Virus record (IMG/VR): IMGVR_UViG_3300023198_001252
Coordinates: 6,320 to 70,319 of that record
Source: a virus
DNA: 64,000 bases
Reading direction: 5' to 3' (one strand)
The notes under the pieces were generated by a model. The model made no database searches. It was not told the origin of the DNA and saw only the letters and a list, made by a program, of their open reading frames with translations. The position numbers were made by a program, and so were the translations under genes. Below, piece by piece: positions 6,308 through 52,476 of the stretch (positions are counted from its first letter, which is position 1; every line of letters starts with the position of its first letter).

Positions 6308-7393
6308 ATGGAGATACCAATGAAGATTATAGAATTTATAAAAGCAAATGATAATTGGAAAGAGCTGTTAAAAAAAGATCCTTATAATTTAATGATCAAA
6401 GAAGAAAATGGCTTTACTCTTTTAAAATACAATCAATTTAGCTCTGATTTCAACTTGCAAATAGTGCAGGAAGCTAGAGGGATTATTTTAGATAGGGATT
6501 TAAATATTGTAGCTCATCCTTTTCAAAAATTTTTTAATTATAGTGAGGATAATGCTGCAAAAATAGATTTTAAAACTGCAAAAGTTCAAGAAAAAATAGA
6601 TGGATCATTAATAAAATTATGGTATTATAAATACCAATGGTATTTATCAACTAATGGCTCTATAAATGCCTATACTACACCCACTAGTTTTTATAACACC
6701 CCTAAAACATTTGGTCATTTATTTACTATAGCTACAGAAAAACATAATATTAAATACTCGAAATTAGATAAAAAATATACATATATTTTTGAATTAGTAT
6801 CACTTTACAATAAAGTAGTTATTCCCTATTTAGAAACTAAAATATATCATATCGGCACAAGACATAATAAAACAGGTCAAGAAATTAATACAGATATCGG
6901 AATTGCTAAACCTAAAGAATATAAATTTGATTCTTTATATGATGTTTTTAAAACTGCTAAAAAATTACCTTATAATAAAGAGGGTTATGTCGTCGTAGAT
7001 GGTAATTGGAATAGGGTAAAAGTAAAATCTCCTGCTTATGTTGCAGTGCATTATCTGAAATCAACTTATTCAGAAGATAAATTATTAACATTAATTAGAA
7101 ATGGGGAAAGTGAAGAATTTTTAAATTATTTCCCTGAATATAAAAAAGATCATGATATCCTTAAAAAGGATTATGAGTTACTAATAAAAAAACTTAAGGA
7201 TGAATTCTTTTCGATGCAAAGAAATTCATTTACAGATAAAAAAGATTTTGCATTAAATTTTGCAAAACATACCACTATTCCAGATATCTTTTTTAGACTA
7301 TATGATAAAAAAATAAATAATATTTTAGAAGGGTTAGAAAAAGTAAGTAATGAGAATATATTTAAACAAATAACAAAATTAAAAGGAGAATAG
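6308..7393 (+). CDS. RNA ligase, T4 Rnl1-like nucleotidyltransferase
   Basis: Motif I QEKIDGSLI, EARGIILD, FELVS, EGYVVVD, RVKVKS. Confidence 0.85.
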   Translation: MEIPMKIIEFIKANDNWKELLKKDPYNLMIKEENGFTLLKYNQFSSDFNLQIVQEARGIILDRDLNIVAHPFQKFFNYSEDNAAKIDFKTAKVQEKIDGSLIKLWYYKYQWYLSTNGSINAYTTPTSFYNTPKTFGHLFTIATEKHNIKYSKLDKKYTYIFELVSLYNKVVIPYLETKIYHIGTRHNKTGQEINTDIGIAKPKEYKFDSLYDVFKTAKKLPYNKEGYVVVDGNWNRVKVKSPAYVAVHYLKSTYSEDKLLTLIRNGESEEFLNYFPEYKKDHDILKKDYELLIKKLKDEFFSMQRNSFTDKKDFALNFAKHTTIPDIFFRLYDKKINNILEGLEKVSNENIFKQITKLKGE

Positions 7394-10122: not shown

Positions 10123-10593
10123 ATGATGGATTTAAACGCAACAGATAATAAAAATATTTTAAAATTACAAAAATATAAAGCAATGGATCATCTTATTTTT
10201 GATGGTCGTTCTTTTAAATCATTAGAGAGATTAAAAGAGCATAAATTAGTAAAAATAGAAACAGCATATAATTGTAGTACTAAAAAGAATATACCTACTT
10301 TTTTTGTCACTTTAACAGAGAAAGGACTACAATATAAAAAGTTTCATAAAAATAAAACTATAATAAAATTAAATAAGCTTACAGCAGAAGCTGCTGTAAA
10401 TTGGAGATACTACAAAAGATTTAAAAAGTACGGTCTATATAAAATTATAAACATACTTACAAAAGAAGAGATAAAAGAAATAGGTATATATTTTGAATCG
10501 AGCAAAAAACTATTTAATCATATAAAATATATTTGGTATAAGAACAGAAAAGGCCTTACTAGTGATAGAAAAGAAAATAAAGAAATATTCTAA
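10123..10593 (+). CDS. hypothetical basic protein
   Basis: AAGGAG RBS; the 3' end overlaps the truncated tnpB. Confidence 0.65.
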   Translation: MMDLNATDNKNILKLQKYKAMDHLIFDGRSFKSLERLKEHKLVKIETAYNCSTKKNIPTFFVTLTEKGLQYKKFHKNKTIIKLNKLTAEAAVNWRYYKRFKKYGLYKIINILTKEEIKEIGIYFESSKKLFNHIKYIWYKNRKGLTSDRKENKEIF

Positions 10594-11158
10594 AATATTT
10601 GCAAGAAAACAAAAAGACAGTAAAAGGAGAGAAAAGTTTAGGGTAAAACTAGCAAGACTTTATGAGTATAAGAATAATTTTTTAAATCATTTTCATTGGA
10701 ATTTAGTACACAAACTGACTAGTGAGAACAAAGCTATATCAATTGAAAATTTAAATATTTCAGGGATGATTAAAAATAAAAGGCTATCACACTCTATTCA
10801 TTATTCTAATTTTGGAGGTTTTATTGATAAATTAGAACAAAAAGCGAATGACTATGATACAATTATTTATAAAGTTGGTAGATTTTATCCAAGCTCAAAA
10901 TTATGTTCAAAATGCGGAAATAAAAAAGATGATTTAAAATTATCGGATAGAATATATTTTTGTGACTGTGGGTTAGAAATTGATAGAGATTTAAATGCGT
11001 CTATAAATATTTGTAATGAATATTTTAAAAATAATTCGGTGGAGTACATCGAATACAATCATGGAGAAACAATAAATCCTTGTAAAATTATTTATAATTT
11101 TTCAGGTAGTTTTAGTGAAGTGATTACCGAAAGTTTTAACATTTGTTAAAACTTTTAG
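10562..11158 (+). pseudogene. tnpB: 5'-truncated tnpB (bridge helix, RuvC-II, Zn ribbon, RuvC-III) with right end
   Basis: ISIENLNISGM, YPSSKLCSKCG, DRDLNASINI; no RuvC-I DxG upstream (in-frame stop at 10520); 3' ~210 nt near-identical to both mini-elements. Confidence 0.85.
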
Positions 11159-35398: not shown

Positions 35399-35427
35399 TT
35401 GACTTTTTAATTTTAATTTAGTATTAT
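35399..35427 (+). promoter_or_regulatory. phage-type promoter driving an ncRNA
   Basis: TTGACT-17-TATTAT; spacer TTTTAATTTTAATTTAG identical to that of the 5582 promoter. Confidence 0.75.
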
Positions 35428-35431
35428 ATTA

Positions 35432-35564
35432 CCATACGTATTTTAAAATACGTATGGGTTGGTTCTACAACCTTAAGGTGAGATGGATTACTTTTTAAAA
35501 GTAATTATACTCACTAATCTGTACAATAAGTACAGAAATAGAACAGGCCTATAATACTATTAGA
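35432..35564 (+). ncRNA. orphan Cas12f/TnpB-type fused guide RNA (scaffold 35432-35544, guide from 35545)
   Basis: Shares CCTTAAGGTGAGATGG and TACTCACTAATCT with the tracr-like RNA near 49.1 kb; compensatory stem and pseudoknot changes. Confidence 0.75.
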
Positions 35565-46293: not shown

Positions 46294-48864
46294 TTATCCT
46301 ACACTATGCTTTATACTTTTTTGTATCATTGGTCTATGCAGTAATCTATAGCCCGATTCATCCGCACAATTAGATACTACTATTCCGTGTTCTATACAAA
46401 ATCTTTCATGTGTAGGAACTGTTAAACAATATACATCCTCATTAGATATGCTTTCTCTTTTTATCAAATGTACTAAATTTTGTTTATTTTTTTTTAATTT
46501 AACTAAGAAGAATTTATCTTCTTTTATTCTAATTGCATCGGCTCTTATCCATTTCTGACCTGTATAAAATAAATGGTCTGGTGTACATTTAATTCTCATA
46601 CCATCAGAAAAATATAATTTTATAACTTTTTTATTTTCCCCTACTAGTCTACAATTTCTATATTTTTGATAACCGCTATCTGTTAATACTTTACCCTTTG
46701 TATTTACTAAATCTTTTATAGCAATTTTACCTTTAGTAGTAATTACTTTAGTGTCCCCTGTAAAGCAGTGGTCTTCTTCATCTGTGTTTGAAACTAAAAT
46801 ATTATTTGCGTAATACAATCCTGCTTTTTCGGTTACAAGATTGTAAACCGTTTTTTTATCTTTTATATTTTCAATACTAGTTATACTTATATTTTTAATA
46901 CTCACATTATAACATTTATCAGAATATAGTTTAAAAAAATCATCAGTGATATTATCTTTATATTCTTTAGATATATTCACAATTCTTATCTTCTCTATAA
47001 TCTCTATTATTTCATTACGTGCTACTTTTTTATTTTTTTTATTTAATAGAATATCTTTGTCTAAATAAGATGAAAATAAAATAAAAGGAATTGTAGCAAA
47101 AACACTTAAATAATTAATATTCAACTTATAAGCCAACATACTTTTTGATTTATTCCATTGTACTTTTTCTAGTGTACTATTTATTTTTAAATCCTTTAAC
47201 GCTATTAACCCTTTTCCCGGAACATGTATCTTATGATTTGGTGTACCTTCTAAACTTTCACCATTTGAAAAAGTTACTTTTATTGTTTTACTCATTCCAC
47301 TGCAAATCGATTTTTTAACTTTACATAATCCTATTGGAGTATAAACTAAATCCTTTTTTGTAACATCTTCAATATTTTTAAGTTCTTTTTCAGTTTGAAC
47401 TTTGGTACCGGCAATAAAACAATTAATATCATCAGGATCTTTGTCATCTCTTCCCAATATTGGAACAGTTCTAATAAAAGCTTTACAATCTTCTGTAACA
47501 AATAATCCAGGATCCTCCATTGGGAATTTTAAAGCATCTTTAAACATTGTCCGCATTTTTTCCCATCTTCTCTTCCTACTACCAGGAGATTTATCAGCTT
47601 TTACAAAAATATGATTAGTTCTAGTATTTCCATAACCTTCATTAAGTAATTCAGCTATACTATCATTTTTATGATCTGCGTCAAATATAGAAGAGTCTCC
47701 AGGGCCAGGATTTATTTTAATAATATTAAATGCTTTTTTAATGTGTTGCTCTATTTTTTGAATACCTCTACCTATTTCTTTAGATGTTAATCTCAATCCT
47801 TTATTTTCTAGATTTGGTTGACAGCCATACCATTCCCAAAATCTAATTAATGTACCTTTTGGAAATGTTTTTTGTGCTAATTTTTCTATATAAGATCCAT
47901 CTAATTGTTTAATTTTATATATAATCGAAATAGGAGATCCATCTGTCATAGCCCAATAGCCTACAGAAAAAGGCTTCGATTGTCCATAGTCGAAAGACCT
48001 ATCTATGTACCAGGTATTAGGTATATTTATTCTAGGTAAAATGTGTACTTCTTTATCCCATACATCATCAAACATGCCACCAGCTACAATATCCCATGAA
48101 CCTTCAATCCATGCTTTCCTTATATTTGGATTTTTATTTTGTTCTAAATTTATCTCATACTCAGGATCATTATCTATAAATATTTTATTCTCAGATCTAC
48201 TACTATGTATGTAACAACGTTCACGAATCATTTCTTTTTTTGTGTTAGGGTTTTCTAACTTTTCTTCTATTACTTCACATGATTGATTTTCCGTTATTTT
48301 AAATCTTTTTTTAACCCAAAAATGCCCTTTTCCCCATGGATTACAAGTAGATCTAATCATTTTAGGTATCTCAGGATGTGAGGATCTGCAAATAGAAAAC
48401 ATCATGAGATATAACTCGTCTGTTCTCCAATTAGTTAATTCTTCCCAGCCGATAAAAGGATATGCATGTCCATGATAATTCCAATAATCATCAAGCCTGT
48501 TTGCATATCTAAAATAAAGTACCTCACCTTTTGGAAAAGTCCATTTATAATCAGAAGAATTAAATATCGCTTTTGGAAAAATTTGTTTAAACCACTTTAA
48601 ACTTTTTATCTTTATATCTTCTAAATTTTTATACGTTTCTCGAAAAATTATACCACGCCATTCAGCGCCATAACCTTTCCCAACATGCTGTAAGAAATTC
48701 ATTAAAAGTGCATCGGATTTTCCACCTGACCTATTCCCTTCTACTAGTACTTCAAATATAGGGCATTGTAGTAATAGGTCTTGAGCACCGGGATTAGGTT
48801 GCCAAATAACATTAATTTCTTTATTTAGTGTAGTATTATTATTCATTGATTTGTAATATAACAC
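46294..48864 (-). CDS. terL: terminase large subunit containing two inteins
   Basis: Walker A-like GNRSGGKS, Walker B-like IGWEEL, RSTCNP, RNase H DRSFDYG; two Hint insertions near the C-terminus. Confidence 0.9.
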   Translation of the reverse strand: MLYYKSMNNNTTLNKEINVIWQPNPGAQDLLLQCPIFEVLVEGNRSGGKSDALLMNFLQHVGKGYGAEWRGIIFRETYKNLEDIKIKSLKWFKQIFPKAIFNSSDYKWTFPKGEVLYFRYANRLDDYWNYHGHAYPFIGWEELTNWRTDELYLMMFSICRSSHPEIPKMIRSTCNPWGKGHFWVKKRFKITENQSCEVIEEKLENPNTKKEMIRERCYIHSSRSENKIFIDNDPEYEINLEQNKNPNIRKAWIEGSWDIVAGGMFDDVWDKEVHILPRINIPNTWYIDRSFDYGQSKPFSVGYWAMTDGSPISIIYKIKQLDGSYIEKLAQKTFPKGTLIRFWEWYGCQPNLENKGLRLTSKEIGRGIQKIEQHIKKAFNIIKINPGPGDSSIFDADHKNDSIAELLNEGYGNTRTNHIFVKADKSPGSRKRRWEKMRTMFKDALKFPMEDPGLFVTEDCKAFIRTVPILGRDDKDPDDINCFIAGTKVQTEKELKNIEDVTKKDLVYTPIGLCKVKKSICSGMSKTIKVTFSNGESLEGTPNHKIHVPGKGLIALKDLKINSTLEKVQWNKSKSMLAYKLNINYLSVFATIPFILFSSYLDKDILLNKKNKKVARNEIIEIIEKIRIVNISKEYKDNITDDFFKLYSDKCYNVSIKNISITSIENIKDKKTVYNLVTEKAGLYYANNILVSNTDEEDHCFTGDTKVITTKGKIAIKDLVNTKGKVLTDSGYQKYRNCRLVGENKKVIKLYFSDGMRIKCTPDHLFYTGQKWIRADAIRIKEDKFFLVKLKKNKQNLVHLIKRESISNEDVYCLTVPTHERFCIEHGIVVSNCADESGYRLLHRPMIQKSIKHSVG
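46369..46767 (-). other. mini-intein 2 in TerL (133 aa)
   Basis: CFTGDTKV...IKCTPDHLF...VYCLTVPTHERFCIEHGIVVSN / +1 Cys. Confidence 0.85.
46786..47421 (-). other. intein 1 in TerL (212 aa)
   Basis: CFIAGTKV...LEGTPNHKI...VYNLVTEKAGLYYANNILVSN / +1 Thr. Confidence 0.85.
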
Positions 48865-48895
48865 AATATTTTATTAATTGCAAGTATGAGATTTT

Positions 48896-48932
48896 GTTTC
48901 AATCCTTATTTTATCGTATTAGCTACTTCACC
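48896..48932 (-). CRISPR. single 37-nt CRISPR-type repeat with leader-like upstream sequence
   Basis: GGTGAAGTAGCTAATACGATAAAATAAGGATTGAAAC; its 3' half pairs with AATCTTATTTTAT in the nearby tracr-like RNA. Confidence 0.65.
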
Positions 48933-49071
48933 CCTTTTTGACACTTTTCCGCACACTTTTGATATGTAAAAACATGAGAAAAACGCTAAATAATTACAAA
49001 TACGGCTTGATATAACATTTCGGTTTTTACCGAACTCAAAAATCACCTATAGCAATATTTCGGTTTTTACT

Positions 49072-49160
49072 AAACATAAAATAAGATTAGTGAGTACAAT
49101 TCTTTCGATACCATCTCACCTTAAGGACGTAAAACCGCCCCACATGTATACAACATGTTT
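49072..49160 (-). ncRNA. tracrRNA-like scaffold of the Cas12f-like locus
   Basis: Stem GGGCG/CGTCC with GTTTTA loop, GTGAG/CTCAC stem, anti-repeat at 49088-49076. Confidence 0.7.
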
Positions 49161-49199
49161 ATTACGTGAAAATTCTTTTACACCCCCTTTGACAATAAT

Positions 49200-49275
49200 G
49201 ATTATTCACTTGTTACGTTTCAATCATTATTTTCTATGTATAGTACTTGTTTGTTTCAATCTTTACTCTCTACAA
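49200..49275 (-). CRISPR. two degenerate repeat handles ending GATTGAAAC, 36 nt apart
   Basis: GTTTCAATC on the + strand at 49217 and 49253. Confidence 0.5.
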
Positions 49276-49280
49276 TAATA

Positions 49281-49309
49281 ATTGTAGCAAAATCAGTATA
49301 ATAAGTCAA
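49281..49309 (-). promoter_or_regulatory. promoter for the ncRNA region
   Basis: TTGACT-17-TACAAT immediately after the Cas12f-like stop. Confidence 0.7.
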
Positions 49310-49324
49310 GTATTATTTTAATTA

Positions 49325-50516
49325 TTATACAACCTTCACCGACTGAGCAATATTAACAGCAGCGTTATAATCTCGATCAAGTTCCTCATTACATTCAGGG
49401 CATATATATTTCCTGTCACTTATTTTAATTTCCTTATTGATAAATCCACACTTATTACATGTTTTTGTAGTATTTTTAGGATTAACATATACAGTAGCTA
49501 TCCCATTCATTTTAGCTTTATACTCAATGTAACTTTGTAATTCATAATAAGTCCAATTCCTTCTAACCCATTCATTCTTTTTATCCGGCATTTTTTCAAT
49601 TAAACTCAATTTTTCAAGTTTAATAATCCTGGCTTTATGCCTTAATGCAAATTTTATAATTTCACAACTTACTCGATGGTTTACTGTTTTTACAAAATTA
49701 CGTTCTTTGTTTTTAAATTTTTCAATTACTTTTGTTTTCTTTTTTCGGCCTTTGCCTCCATGTGCAATTTTTATGTTTCTTTGCATTTGCTTTAACTGTT
49801 TTTGTAGACGTTGTCTAGTAATATAATAACTTTCATTATTATTCTTATGTCCTCCAATAAATGCACGTTGTAGCCCCTTAGATAATGCACAAACTGCTAA
49901 TGTAGAGATTCCAATATCTACACCTACGCTTAATGTAGAATCTAGTTTATTAGGTGTAACTGGAATATCTACACAAAGATTAAGGAACCATTTATTTTTA
50001 GTTTTATGATGTTGGATAGAAGAGCCACACGCTTTATAGTTACCTTCTATGATTTGTTCTATAATGTACTGGTTATTTGATTTATCCCTTCCAAACTTTA
50101 AATTAAATTTAATCTTTTCTTGCCATTTTAAATGTATTTCTTTATCTATTTGTATAAAAGGTTTACCTTCTTTTGTAAATGGAAAATAAATAGGAAATCC
50201 AAGCCTTCTATAATTTCTTAAACTTCTATCACCTCTTAAAATTTCTTTTATGTCTGCTTTAAATTGCCCTTGAATATTTTGAGCAATACAAGCTCTTATA
50301 GCTGTTTGATATTTTATAGGAAATATTCTGTGCTGAACCTGAATTATATAAAGACTTTACATAATCATTTATAATTTTTTTATCTTCTTCAACATTTTCT
50401 TTTATTTTATTTGTTAATTTTAAATTCATATATAAATCAGACATAATCCCATTCGCTAATGTATATGAATTATAAGATAAATCATGTAATCTTTTATGGT
50501 AACTATATATATTCAT
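49325..50516 (-). pseudogene. Cas12f-like / TnpB nuclease in three reading-frame pieces
   Basis: Joined translation: FKADIKEILRGDRSLRNYR, FGRDKSNN, KNKWFLNL, RuvC-I VGVDIG, RuvC-II IKLEKL, WTYYELQSYIEYKA, TTKTCNKCG, RuvC-III DRDYNAAVNIA; frameshifts near 50312 and 49823. Confidence 0.85.
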
Positions 50517-50540
50517 GTACTAAATAATAAAACAGAAACA

Positions 50541-50573
50541 AAAGAGCACTATAATTTATATATAGTGCTCTTT
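50541..50573. terminator. 13-bp stem terminator after KilA-N
   Basis: AAAGAGCACTATA-7 nt-TATAGTGCTCTTT. Confidence 0.75.
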
Positions 50574-50579
50574 GTCATT

Positions 50580-51524
50580 TTAATCAATAATTGTTTTAGT
50601 GGTGCCTTTTGGAAGCTCTGCTATAACTTTTTTTAGATATGGTAATATGCTTTTATCTTTTTTAGAGAAATAATCGAGTCCTTTTTGCTGTAGCCAAATT
50701 TGATTGAAATATAATCGAAATTCCGTTATTATTTCATTTGGGTATAACCTTGCATATACGGGAGCTCTTTTTCCGTCATCAAATTCATGCCGATATGAAG
50801 GGAAATTATCAGGTTCATATCCATTATCTCTACACCATTTTGAGAACATTCTTCCCATAGAAATATCAGGCATTAAGTTGGTCGGCAAAATATAGCCGTG
50901 TTGTTCTAACGGCGCGACAAGTCGAAGAGTCATTTCGTCTAACATTGAAAAGTGCGTATGTGGAATTCTAGATCTATTTATTAAGTAACGTCTAATGTGA
51001 TAAGGAATTTTATACTGTGTTTTTTGAGTTCCTTCCATCCATTCAAATACCCATTTAGAAACTAAATTTGCAAATTTTGCAGAAGCCCATTGCCCTAAAT
51101 TTACAGCAACTCGAGGATGTACCCATGTACCCTGTTCTTTTTTGCGGTTTCCACCTTTAACCTTTTGAACTAATTCCGATATGGGAATTCCCATATCGGA
51201 AGACACCTCTTCTAAAAACTCATTAGTATTCTTAAGTCTATCATAGTCTGCATATTTTTTACCACATGCTGTACACAATTCTGTAGCATTAATGTACCCG
51301 TCATACGCTCTTTGGTTTATTCTTACTGTGTCTACTTCATGTTCAATAAATGGTAATAATCCCTGTCCTGTCTCATCAAATTTAATTTCGCTAATAATGT
51401 ACCTCCTAGTACTTTTATTGTTTTGTGTATTTATTATACCAATAGCAAATACAAAAGTCAAATTTATTATGTTTATTTTCTTAAAATTATTTTTATAGTT
51501 TTTAAACTTTTTATAAAGTGACAC
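50580..51524 (-). CDS. KilA-N domain protein (true start probably downstream of 51524)
   Basis: DGYINATELC, QGTWVHPRVAVNLGQWAS. Confidence 0.9.
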   Translation of the reverse strand: MSLYKKFKNYKNNFKKINIINLTFVFAIGIINTQNNKSTRRYIISEIKFDETGQGLLPFIEHEVDTVRINQRAYDGYINATELCTACGKKYADYDRLKNTNEFLEEVSSDMGIPISELVQKVKGGNRKKEQGTWVHPRVAVNLGQWASAKFANLVSKWVFEWMEGTQKTQYKIPYHIRRYLINRSRIPHTHFSMLDEMTLRLVAPLEQHGYILPTNLMPDISMGRMFSKWCRDNGYEPDNFPSYRHEFDDGKRAPVYARLYPNEIITEFRLYFNQIWLQQKGLDYFSKKDKSILPYLKKVIAELPKGTTKTIID

Positions 51525-51570: not shown

Positions 51571-52476
51571 ATGTTTGATTTGTTAAAATTTGAGAGTATA
51601 TTACAGTTAATAGAAGCTTTCCCAACTGAATTAAGTTGTTATATCTACTTAGAATCTCTTTTATGGTATGATGGGATTGTATGTCCTCATTGTGGATCTA
51701 CTCATAAGTTTTGGAGACTCAAAGATCAAAGAATGCTTAAATGTTCAGTATGTAAAATGAGGTTTACAGTTAAAACCGGTACTGTATTTGAAGAAACTCG
51801 TTTATCACTTCGTAAATGGTTTGTAGCTATCTTTTTAATCAGTGTACATTCTAAAGGCATTTCAAGCGTTCAATTATCAAAGGATTTAAGAATTACACAA
51901 AAAACAGCATGGTTTTTAAATCATAGAATTCGTTTCATAATGAACTCATTTAATGAAGGTGAAAAATTAACCGGTATTATCGAAGTTGATGAACATTATG
52001 CCGGTGGAGTTGAAAAGAATAAACACACAGACAAAAAGACACCCAATAATCAAGGCCGTTCTACAAAGACTAAAACTGCCGTATTTGGTATGGTTGAAAG
52101 AGCGGAAAAAGACGAAAGTGGTAATAAAATAAAAAATGCAAAAGTAATTGCTTATAAAGTTGATAATGTAAAGACTAAAACCTTAACCAATGAAATTGAA
52201 AACAATGTAGAAGCTGGCGCAAAAGTAATGAGTGACGAATATCAAAGTTACCGAAAATTAGGCTATACTTTTAAACACCAATATATAAGACATAACAGTG
52301 CTGAATACGTAAGAGGAAATGTACACACAAACACAATAGAGGGATTTTGGGGACTGTTTAAGAGGATGTTTATAGGTATCTATCATTTAATGAGTAATAA
52401 GCATATAAACCGCTATTTATCAGCTTTAGCCTTTAGGTATAATATTATCATCCTTATTTTCTTATACCTTACCTAG
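51571..52476 (+). mobile_element. IS1595-family transposase, probably 3'-clipped
   Basis: Zn ribbon CPHCG...CSVC, IIEVDEHY, VMSDEY, HTNTIEGFW, RYL...FRYN then unrelated sequence. Confidence 0.85.

Follow-up and report, generated by a model that had tools for sequence, protein, structure and literature searches.

The 64,000-nucleotide stretch of viral DNA analysed here (the window) spans positions 6,320 to 70,319 of IMGVR_UViG_3300023198_001252, a 75-kb linear IMG/VR virus record with an estimated completeness of ~74% and a G+C content of 27%. Upstream of the large terminase gene (terL) it carries a compact Cas12f locus, which consists of a cas12f gene followed by a promoter, a trans-activating CRISPR RNA (tracrRNA, or tracr) scaffold with its anti-repeat, a linker and one CRISPR repeat. 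All parts of the locus lie on the minus strand (Table 1). A preliminary description of this DNA had proposed the same series of elements on one strand downstream of the gene, and each of them was located. It had also reported that an adaptation module is missing, in agreement with our search, which found no Cas1 in the 75-kb record. A second, orphan guide RNA gene lies at 35.4 kb.

Table 1 Features of the Cas12f locus, the orphan guide RNA gene and the neighbouring genes (window coordinates).
Feature	Position	Strand	Remarks
cas12f, N-terminal piece	50262..50516	-	85 codons in frame A, beginning with ATG; alignable with the N-termini of relatives
cas12f, main piece	49325..50356	-	343 codons and a stop in frame B, which is open between two stops; RuvC D-E-D triad, CxxC..CxxC zinc ribbon
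Zone of the single +1 frame break	50300..50325	-	includes the A4 run; homology changes frame here
Sigma-70-type promoter of the RNA locus	49281..49309	-	TTGACT-17-TACAAT, extended -10 (TG), score 10/12
Two truncated repeat 3' ends	49217..49271	-	36 nt apart, ends at 49253 and 49217; second closed by a local 10-bp hairpin
tracrRNA scaffold core	49076..49143	-	two conserved helices; covariance model 79.5 bits, E = 5e-17
Anti-repeat	49076..49088	-	3' end of the tracr scaffold core
Linker (former leader), 143 nt	48933..49075	-	14-nt direct repeat inside, of which one copy is part of a small hairpin
Solitary terminal CRISPR repeat	48896..48932	-	cis pairing with anti-repeat; 3' ~20 nt firm, full 37 nt tentative
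Implied 20-nt guide	48876..48895	-	phage flank; overlaps the -35 box of the terL promoter (48883..48855)
Orphan guide RNA gene	35399..35564	+	covariance model 68.6 bits; promoter 10/12; fold z = -7.45
Large terminase gene (terL)	46294..48864	-	downstream neighbour of the Cas12f locus
KilA-N / BstA-like gene	50580..51524	-	upstream neighbour of cas12f; phage competition or defence context
IS1595 transposase	51571-52476		near the KilA-N gene

The cas12f gene is present as a single copy and is written in two frames that overlap at 50356-50262. On the PADLOC Cas12f profile PDLC01699 (399 positions) the two pieces cover consecutive stretches, 18-88 for the 85-aa piece and 85-394 for the 343-aa piece; judged by sequence, they are one cas12f gene of ~396 codons with a single +1 break. 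Profiles from three collections identify the 343-aa piece, with E-values of 6e-85 for PADLOC Cas12f, ~1e-84 for the Cas12f/Cas12u3 profiles, 1.9e-23 for Pfam Cas12f1-like_TNB (PF07282) and 1.2e-10 for OrfB_IS605, and with 168 bits for NCBIfam guided_TnpB (cut-off 100). The NCBIfam Cas12f2 profile scored 115 against a cut-off of 450, which rules out a Cas12f2 identity. The top match in the PDB is chain 8hr5_A (497 aa, 1.4e-59), which we take to be CnCas12f1, followed by 9nzo, 9nzr, 9nzp and 9nzq. Structures 9nzo-9nzt are those of Al3, Os and Rh Cas12f (PMC13186708). In an alignment of 12 sequences the catalytic triad D147, E248 and D329 and the zinc ligands C300, C303, C319 and C322 are invariant (343-aa numbering), and all seven also align to 8hr5_A. 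Thus two early claims, a Cas12f-like gene on a phage and three intact RuvC acidic residues, were borne out: profiles, PDB match and tree agree on type V-F.

The preliminary description had joined three frame pieces across two frameshifts. The break near the A4 run at ~50312 stands. The one at ~49823 does not, as there are only two pieces and the main frame is open from 50356 to 49328; the impression of a break arose because this long frame holds no ATG, GTG or TTG before 49786, where the list of open reading frames starts. In this record the effector is therefore not encoded by an intact open reading frame, having one +1 break near 50300-50325. Since it is a single +1 frameshift, the gene has either lost its function recently or contains a one-base assembly error. 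At the A4 run re-pairing of tRNA-Lys is possible, but programmed +1 frameshifting is unlikely there, with no stimulatory signal and a continuous frame in the relatives.

The nearest protein (55% identity, 433 aa) is encoded on a 2.3-kb metagenome contig, L006, where the gene is followed by the same promoter context, a leader, four 37-nt repeats with a degenerate fifth, and a homologous tracr. Among GenBank phage proteins none exceeds 31% identity to the window Cas12f. Scans with the family alignment added 160 further loci, and in most near relatives a k-mer scan placed CRISPR arrays within ~2 kb of the gene. A quick maximum-likelihood tree of 96 rows (IQ-TREE, LG+G4; midpoint rooting for drawing only) puts the window Cas12f as sister to the L006 protein (support 98) in a clade of four rows (support 99). 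This clade is nested in one of 62 rows (support 97), nearly every one of which has a tracr hit, an array or both, and the array-less TnpBs, mostly haloarchaeal, form a separate group. The window protein lies within the tracr- and array-bearing clade and not with the IS605 TnpBs, a grouping that the preliminary description had named as a refutation.

Conservation of the RNA was assessed on an alignment of seven homologous scaffold cores, two each from the window and L006 and one each from L249, L250 and L008. In it 95% of the cells are paired and 6 of the 12 pairs show changes on both sides; none of 500 shuffles matched the observed values. In 86 near-relative sources the covariance model built on this scaffold gave 80 matches, each on the strand of the gene and most of them between gene and array. 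In 78 distant TnpB loci it gave only 3, and in the whole phage record it found exactly two scaffold copies. Rfam holds no known RNA family for 48000-51000, and scans for the tracr core by exact pattern returned 0 matches in viral and metagenome contigs. At the 3' end of the model the sequence of the relatives is complementary to downstream repeats of ~66-nt period, and anti-repeat and repeat vary together from locus to locus.

In the window the scaffold starts ~185 nt past the cas12f stop codon, behind its own promoter, whose homologue in L006 likewise follows the gene. The first repeat follows the end of the tracr model at 165 nt, within the ~10-200 nt seen in relatives. The intervening linker carries the 14-bp direct repeat noted before, at exactly 49017 and 49057 where chance would give none. 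We found no good promoter or terminator between tracr and repeat. In both the minimum free energy (MFE) and the centroid fold, the anti-repeat, read 49088..49076, pairs with the 3' part of the repeat over ~17 bp and so closes the linker, and the last 9 nt of the repeat are predicted to be single-stranded ahead of the flank. The lack of separating signals and this pairing in cis make the suggested co-transcription of tracr and repeat plausible.

The repeat itself is best defined at its 3' end (48914..48896). Its 3' 17-20 nt are almost identical to the 37-nt repeat of L065, a viral contig with three repeat copies beside a 537-aa Cas12f-like gene; the 5' half is unlike that repeat, and overall the 37-mer matches it at 24/37. 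Against the 37-nt repeat of L006 it scores 22/37 in register, a value reached at ~2e-4 per position among all 37-mers of the window. Of the 37-nt repeat in the preliminary description, then, the 3' ~20 nt are firmly repeat-like, and the extension to the full length is tentative. Repeats ending in GGATTGAAAC, to which the preliminary description had pointed, do accompany Cas12f-like genes, as in L065 and L092, the latter with a repeat ending in GGATTGAGAC. Downstream, no closing repeat was found; the best match, 17/37, lies at background level, which rules out a degenerate copy.

Two truncated repeat ends with GATTGAAAC lie right after the promoter and before the tracr. This sequence occurs three times in the locus and 4 times in the window, where 0.65 copies are expected. 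The truncated ends may be what an array left on collapsing, or else a pseudo-repeat that is embedded in the leader and has its own role; we favour the collapsed array because L006 has a full array between promoter and tracr. In L006 a repeat-end-like piece also stands directly after the homologous promoter. With one full repeat and two truncated ends, the locus falls short of the two or more repeats that make a CRISPR array.

The layout of the locus is shared with its relatives, in which the order gene, tracr, linker, repeat is the norm. In L249, L250 and L008 the gene is followed by tracr, linker and repeat, and the contigs stop within the repeat. L019/L031 and L028 have intact genes (433 and 482 aa), then tracr, one repeat and unique DNA that runs into the next gene and, in L028, opens with a promoter-like -35 box. 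The single-repeat layout is not peculiar to the window. As this layout is the family norm, and as anti-repeat and repeat covary between window and relatives, the repeat was inherited with the locus and not, as first suggested, captured from a host array.

The orphan RNA gene at 35.4 kb provides a second view of the scaffold. It has a perfect 11-bp hairpin and the tracr scaffold, in which helix 1 shows compensatory changes and the inner hairpin differs from that of the main locus yet is perfect; a 5-nt loop fuses the anti-repeat to half a repeat. A free tail of 8-9 nt follows, and the guide consists of the DNA immediately beyond the major head gene. This 113-nt RNA folds into four clean hairpins, and the predicted fold of the main-locus RNA keeps to this four-helix order, its last loop being enlarged by the linker. 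The two scaffold copies of the phage are diverged; because the second copy nevertheless keeps both helices by compensatory changes, the RNAs appear to have been under selection.

In a number of viral relatives, namely L017 (at 3577, 5069 and 6063), L018, L020, L021, L026, L028 and L035, one cas12f is accompanied by two or three copies of the tracr scaffold, and a short array or a single repeat belongs to each copy. In this phage-associated clade it thus seems common for one nuclease to have multiple guide modules. On L006 two diverged modules (117-330 and 2062-2260) read 'degenerate repeat, ~80 nt, tracr, half-repeat-like piece', the latter piece ~10 nt after each of the two tracr copies. One module stands directly before the cas12f start codon and the other before the start of the next gene, so that each implied guide would cover a ribosome-binding region.

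Taken together, these data are best read as a phage-borne, array-less and hard-wired type V-F Cas12f (V-U3-like, ~400 aa) that has been reduced to a minimum, a reading to which we assign a probability of roughly 0.6. Its parts differ in strength. The identity as Cas12f and the origin by reduction from array-bearing loci, as profiles, tree and layout indicate, we hold with high confidence. A single-guide RNA folded in cis is the probable form of the RNA, going by the predicted structures. A role in homing or exclusion, proposed by analogy, is tentative. Most doubtful is the full proposal, drawn from the sequences, that a nuclease-competent phage Cas12f has gone back to a TnpB-like life, array-less and with guides hard-wired to insertion-site DNA for RNA-guided homing or exclusion between phages, and that split and fused guide forms coexist; we regard it as possible though unlikely.

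Under the reading we prefer, an array collapse in an array-bearing Cas12f ancestor would have left the tracr, the linker, one repeat and the two truncated remnants. One transcript from the promoter at 49309 would hold tracr and repeat. Because the anti-repeat pairs in cis with the repeat, the fold would resemble a single guide, a natural one like the 35.4-kb RNA with an insertion of 140 nt in its last loop. With a single repeat, the only guide would be the phage's own DNA before the terminase gene: after the 9-nt free tail, ~20 nt of phage flank would serve as the sole, hard-wired guide. The phage's own copy of this site would be spared, since the repeat occupies the putative position of the protospacer adjacent motif (PAM). 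In related phages that lack the cassette the same site could be cleaved, which would lead to exclusion or homing, as TnpB does for its transposon. We consider this the most economical function because a flank-derived guide has one constant target, the same site in cassette-free relatives. In keeping with it, a BstA-like exclusion gene lies next door, and both guide RNA genes adjoin essential late genes, one at the terL promoter and one at the 3' flank of the head gene. The retention of two scaffold copies, which their sequences suggest to be due to selection, argues in the same direction.

Several observations weigh against this interpretation. The cas12f gene is frameshifted in this record, and the long RNA has a modest z-score of folding, -2.3 to -2.5. 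Neither the guide at 48876..48895 nor that of the 35.4-kb RNA has another match in the window or the viral collection, and the flank guides of the single-repeat relatives L019 and L028 match their own contigs only. A cassette-free relative of the phage was not found, a search with the terminase N-terminus giving relatives of at most 50% amino-acid identity. With neither such a relative nor a guide match elsewhere, the target of homing or exclusion is wholly inferred.

The main rival is a decaying remnant, in which the array was lost by recombination between repeats and the nuclease by frameshift, leaving the repeat and its 'guide' idle. We rate this as a serious but minority possibility. It would account for the one real-looking frame break, for the truncated repeat ends between promoter and tracr, which resemble a collapsed array, and for two guides for which no target was found. 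Against decay stand the single lesion in the ~1190 nt of cas12f and an N-terminal piece that is well conserved relative to its homologs, as do two diverged scaffolds that keep their helices by compensatory change and relatives with single-repeat layouts beside intact genes. If the locus is only decayed, it represents an ordinary case of CRISPR loss in a phage.

Alternatively, the repeat could be an empty array that is filled in trans by a host Cas1-Cas2, or the phage tracr could pair with host CRISPR RNAs (crRNAs) that share the repeat end. The repeat 3' end is indeed common to real arrays (L065, L092), and the Cas12f branch generally lacks adaptation genes of its own (PMC10691335). Against both versions, which we consider improbable, no array of the host was observed, the 35.4-kb RNA with its fused guide offers no place for new spacers, and the 5' half of the repeat differs from the L065 repeat.

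The preliminary description had seen in the locus an intermediate that links TnpB/omegaRNA to CRISPR-Cas12f and whose leader and first repeat came from a host array. A guide taken from the flank, as in TnpB, and the presence of a single repeat would fit this. The tree argues otherwise: the protein nests deep inside a Cas12f clade with tracr and arrays, and from this nesting we conclude that a CRISPR locus was secondarily reduced and so became omega-like. Layout and anti-repeat/repeat pair came with the gene, the RNA differs from an omegaRNA in having its own promoter and in starting 185 nt past the stop codon, and no Y1 transposase (Y1_Tnp) is found in the record; we therefore give an ancestral stage very little credence. 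Equally remote is a solitary-repeat RNA anti-CRISPR (Racr) or a guide that regulates the phage's own terL promoter: phage solitary repeats can act as RNA anti-CRISPRs (PMC10651486), and the guide overlaps the -35 box of that promoter, but here a nuclease gene and a tracr that fits it accompany the repeat, the RuvC triad has stayed intact, in contrast to known RNA-guided regulators, and binding to its own site would require a PAM where the repeat sits.

If the reduced Cas12f is active, the collapse of CRISPR to an omega-like single guide is not limited to nuclease-dead lineages, the case described so far, and has occurred in a cutting Cas12f within phages, where split and fused RNAs would form a natural series for the fusion of tracr and repeat. 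It would also be an RNA-guided analogue of homing endonucleases for phages, placed beside terminase and capsid genes. A Cas12f of ~396 aa with a natural single guide of 113 nt is, moreover, a compact candidate scaffold for editing.

The terminase open reading frame (856 aa) contains intein splicing and Hint domains (Pfam Intein_splicing, two stretches). On the other side, the KilA-N gene matches Pfam KilA-N (2.3e-22), PHROG 6287 'BstA abortive infection' (3.8e-57) and PADLOC BstA (2.4e-18), and together with the IS1595 transposase it looks like a small competition or defence island ahead of the late operon. At 10544-11017 (+), inside an open reading frame of 195 aa, lies an unrelated second TnpB-type C-terminal fragment with 29% identity to residues 184-338 of the Cas12f piece; the IS607-type mini-elements of the preliminary description are its probable source.

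A different arrangement was seen in prophage-like loci, L012 (2987-3330), L010, L013, L014, L097 (Clostridioides difficile chromosome), L015 and L016. Here a Cas12f-like gene of 403-464 aa is flanked by arrays of 29-30-nt repeats, with a tracr-model match just upstream of the array, and in L012 the anti-repeat is complementary to the middle of the repeat. The 29-30-nt repeats presumably resemble those of C. difficile type I-B, so that the Cas12f of these loci may use arrays of the I-B type.

Compared with known systems, the locus is closest to the compact type V-F Cas12f loci, with which it shares the RuvC triad, the TNB zinc ribbon, the size of ~400 aa, the lack of cas1, cas2 and cas4, and a long, anti-repeat-bearing tracrRNA that is encoded past the end of the gene and on its strand. 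In this Cas12f branch arrays lie downstream of the gene and cas1/2/4 are absent (PMC10691335). The window locus differs in having one repeat and no spacers, with tracr and repeat in one presumed transcript, and in a frameshifted, phage-carried gene that adjoins terL.

With IS200/IS605 TnpB/omegaRNA it has in common one implied hard-wired guide, given by the DNA that adjoins the RNA gene at its 3' end, and a plausible role in homing; the use of flank-derived guides for homing is established for TnpB. Unlike these elements, the window locus has no TnpA or transposon ends, its RNA scaffold lies clear of the 3' end of the gene and behind a separate promoter, its protein belongs to a CRISPR-associated clade, and its scaffold consists of tracr and repeat. 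IS200/IS605 elements are recognized by a Y1 TnpA or ends and by near-identical copies; this record has no Y1_Tnp, a single gene copy and diverged RNA copies.

Phage-carried CRISPR systems and solitary repeat units without adaptation genes, such as the 'Cas12 hacker' (bioRxiv 2025.01.20.633832) and Racr (PMC10651486), are thought to act against rivals, as proposed here. The former belongs to another family, has 500-700 aa and comes with arrays. Racrs are solitary repeats that mimic the CRISPR repeat of the host and have no cognate nuclease or tracr, whereas in the window cas12f and a matching tracr stand alongside the repeat.

A parallel to the 35.4-kb RNA, in which half a repeat is fused to the tracr in an omega-like manner, is found in the chimeric guides of the nuclease-dead Cas12f linked to sigma-E (PMC10691335; PMC13472631). 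For that lineage it has been proposed that the array was minimised to half a repeat and then fused to the tracr (PMC10691335; PMC13472631), and relative to its guides the main locus shows the unfused step. A literature search, which was not exhaustive, returned no description of a phage Cas12f with an intact triad, a solitary repeat and an orphan fused guide. The nuclease-dead proteins have lost RuvC, are partnered with rpoE and reside on Bacteroidetes chromosomes, whereas the window Cas12f retains its triad, has no sigma factor and is carried by a phage.

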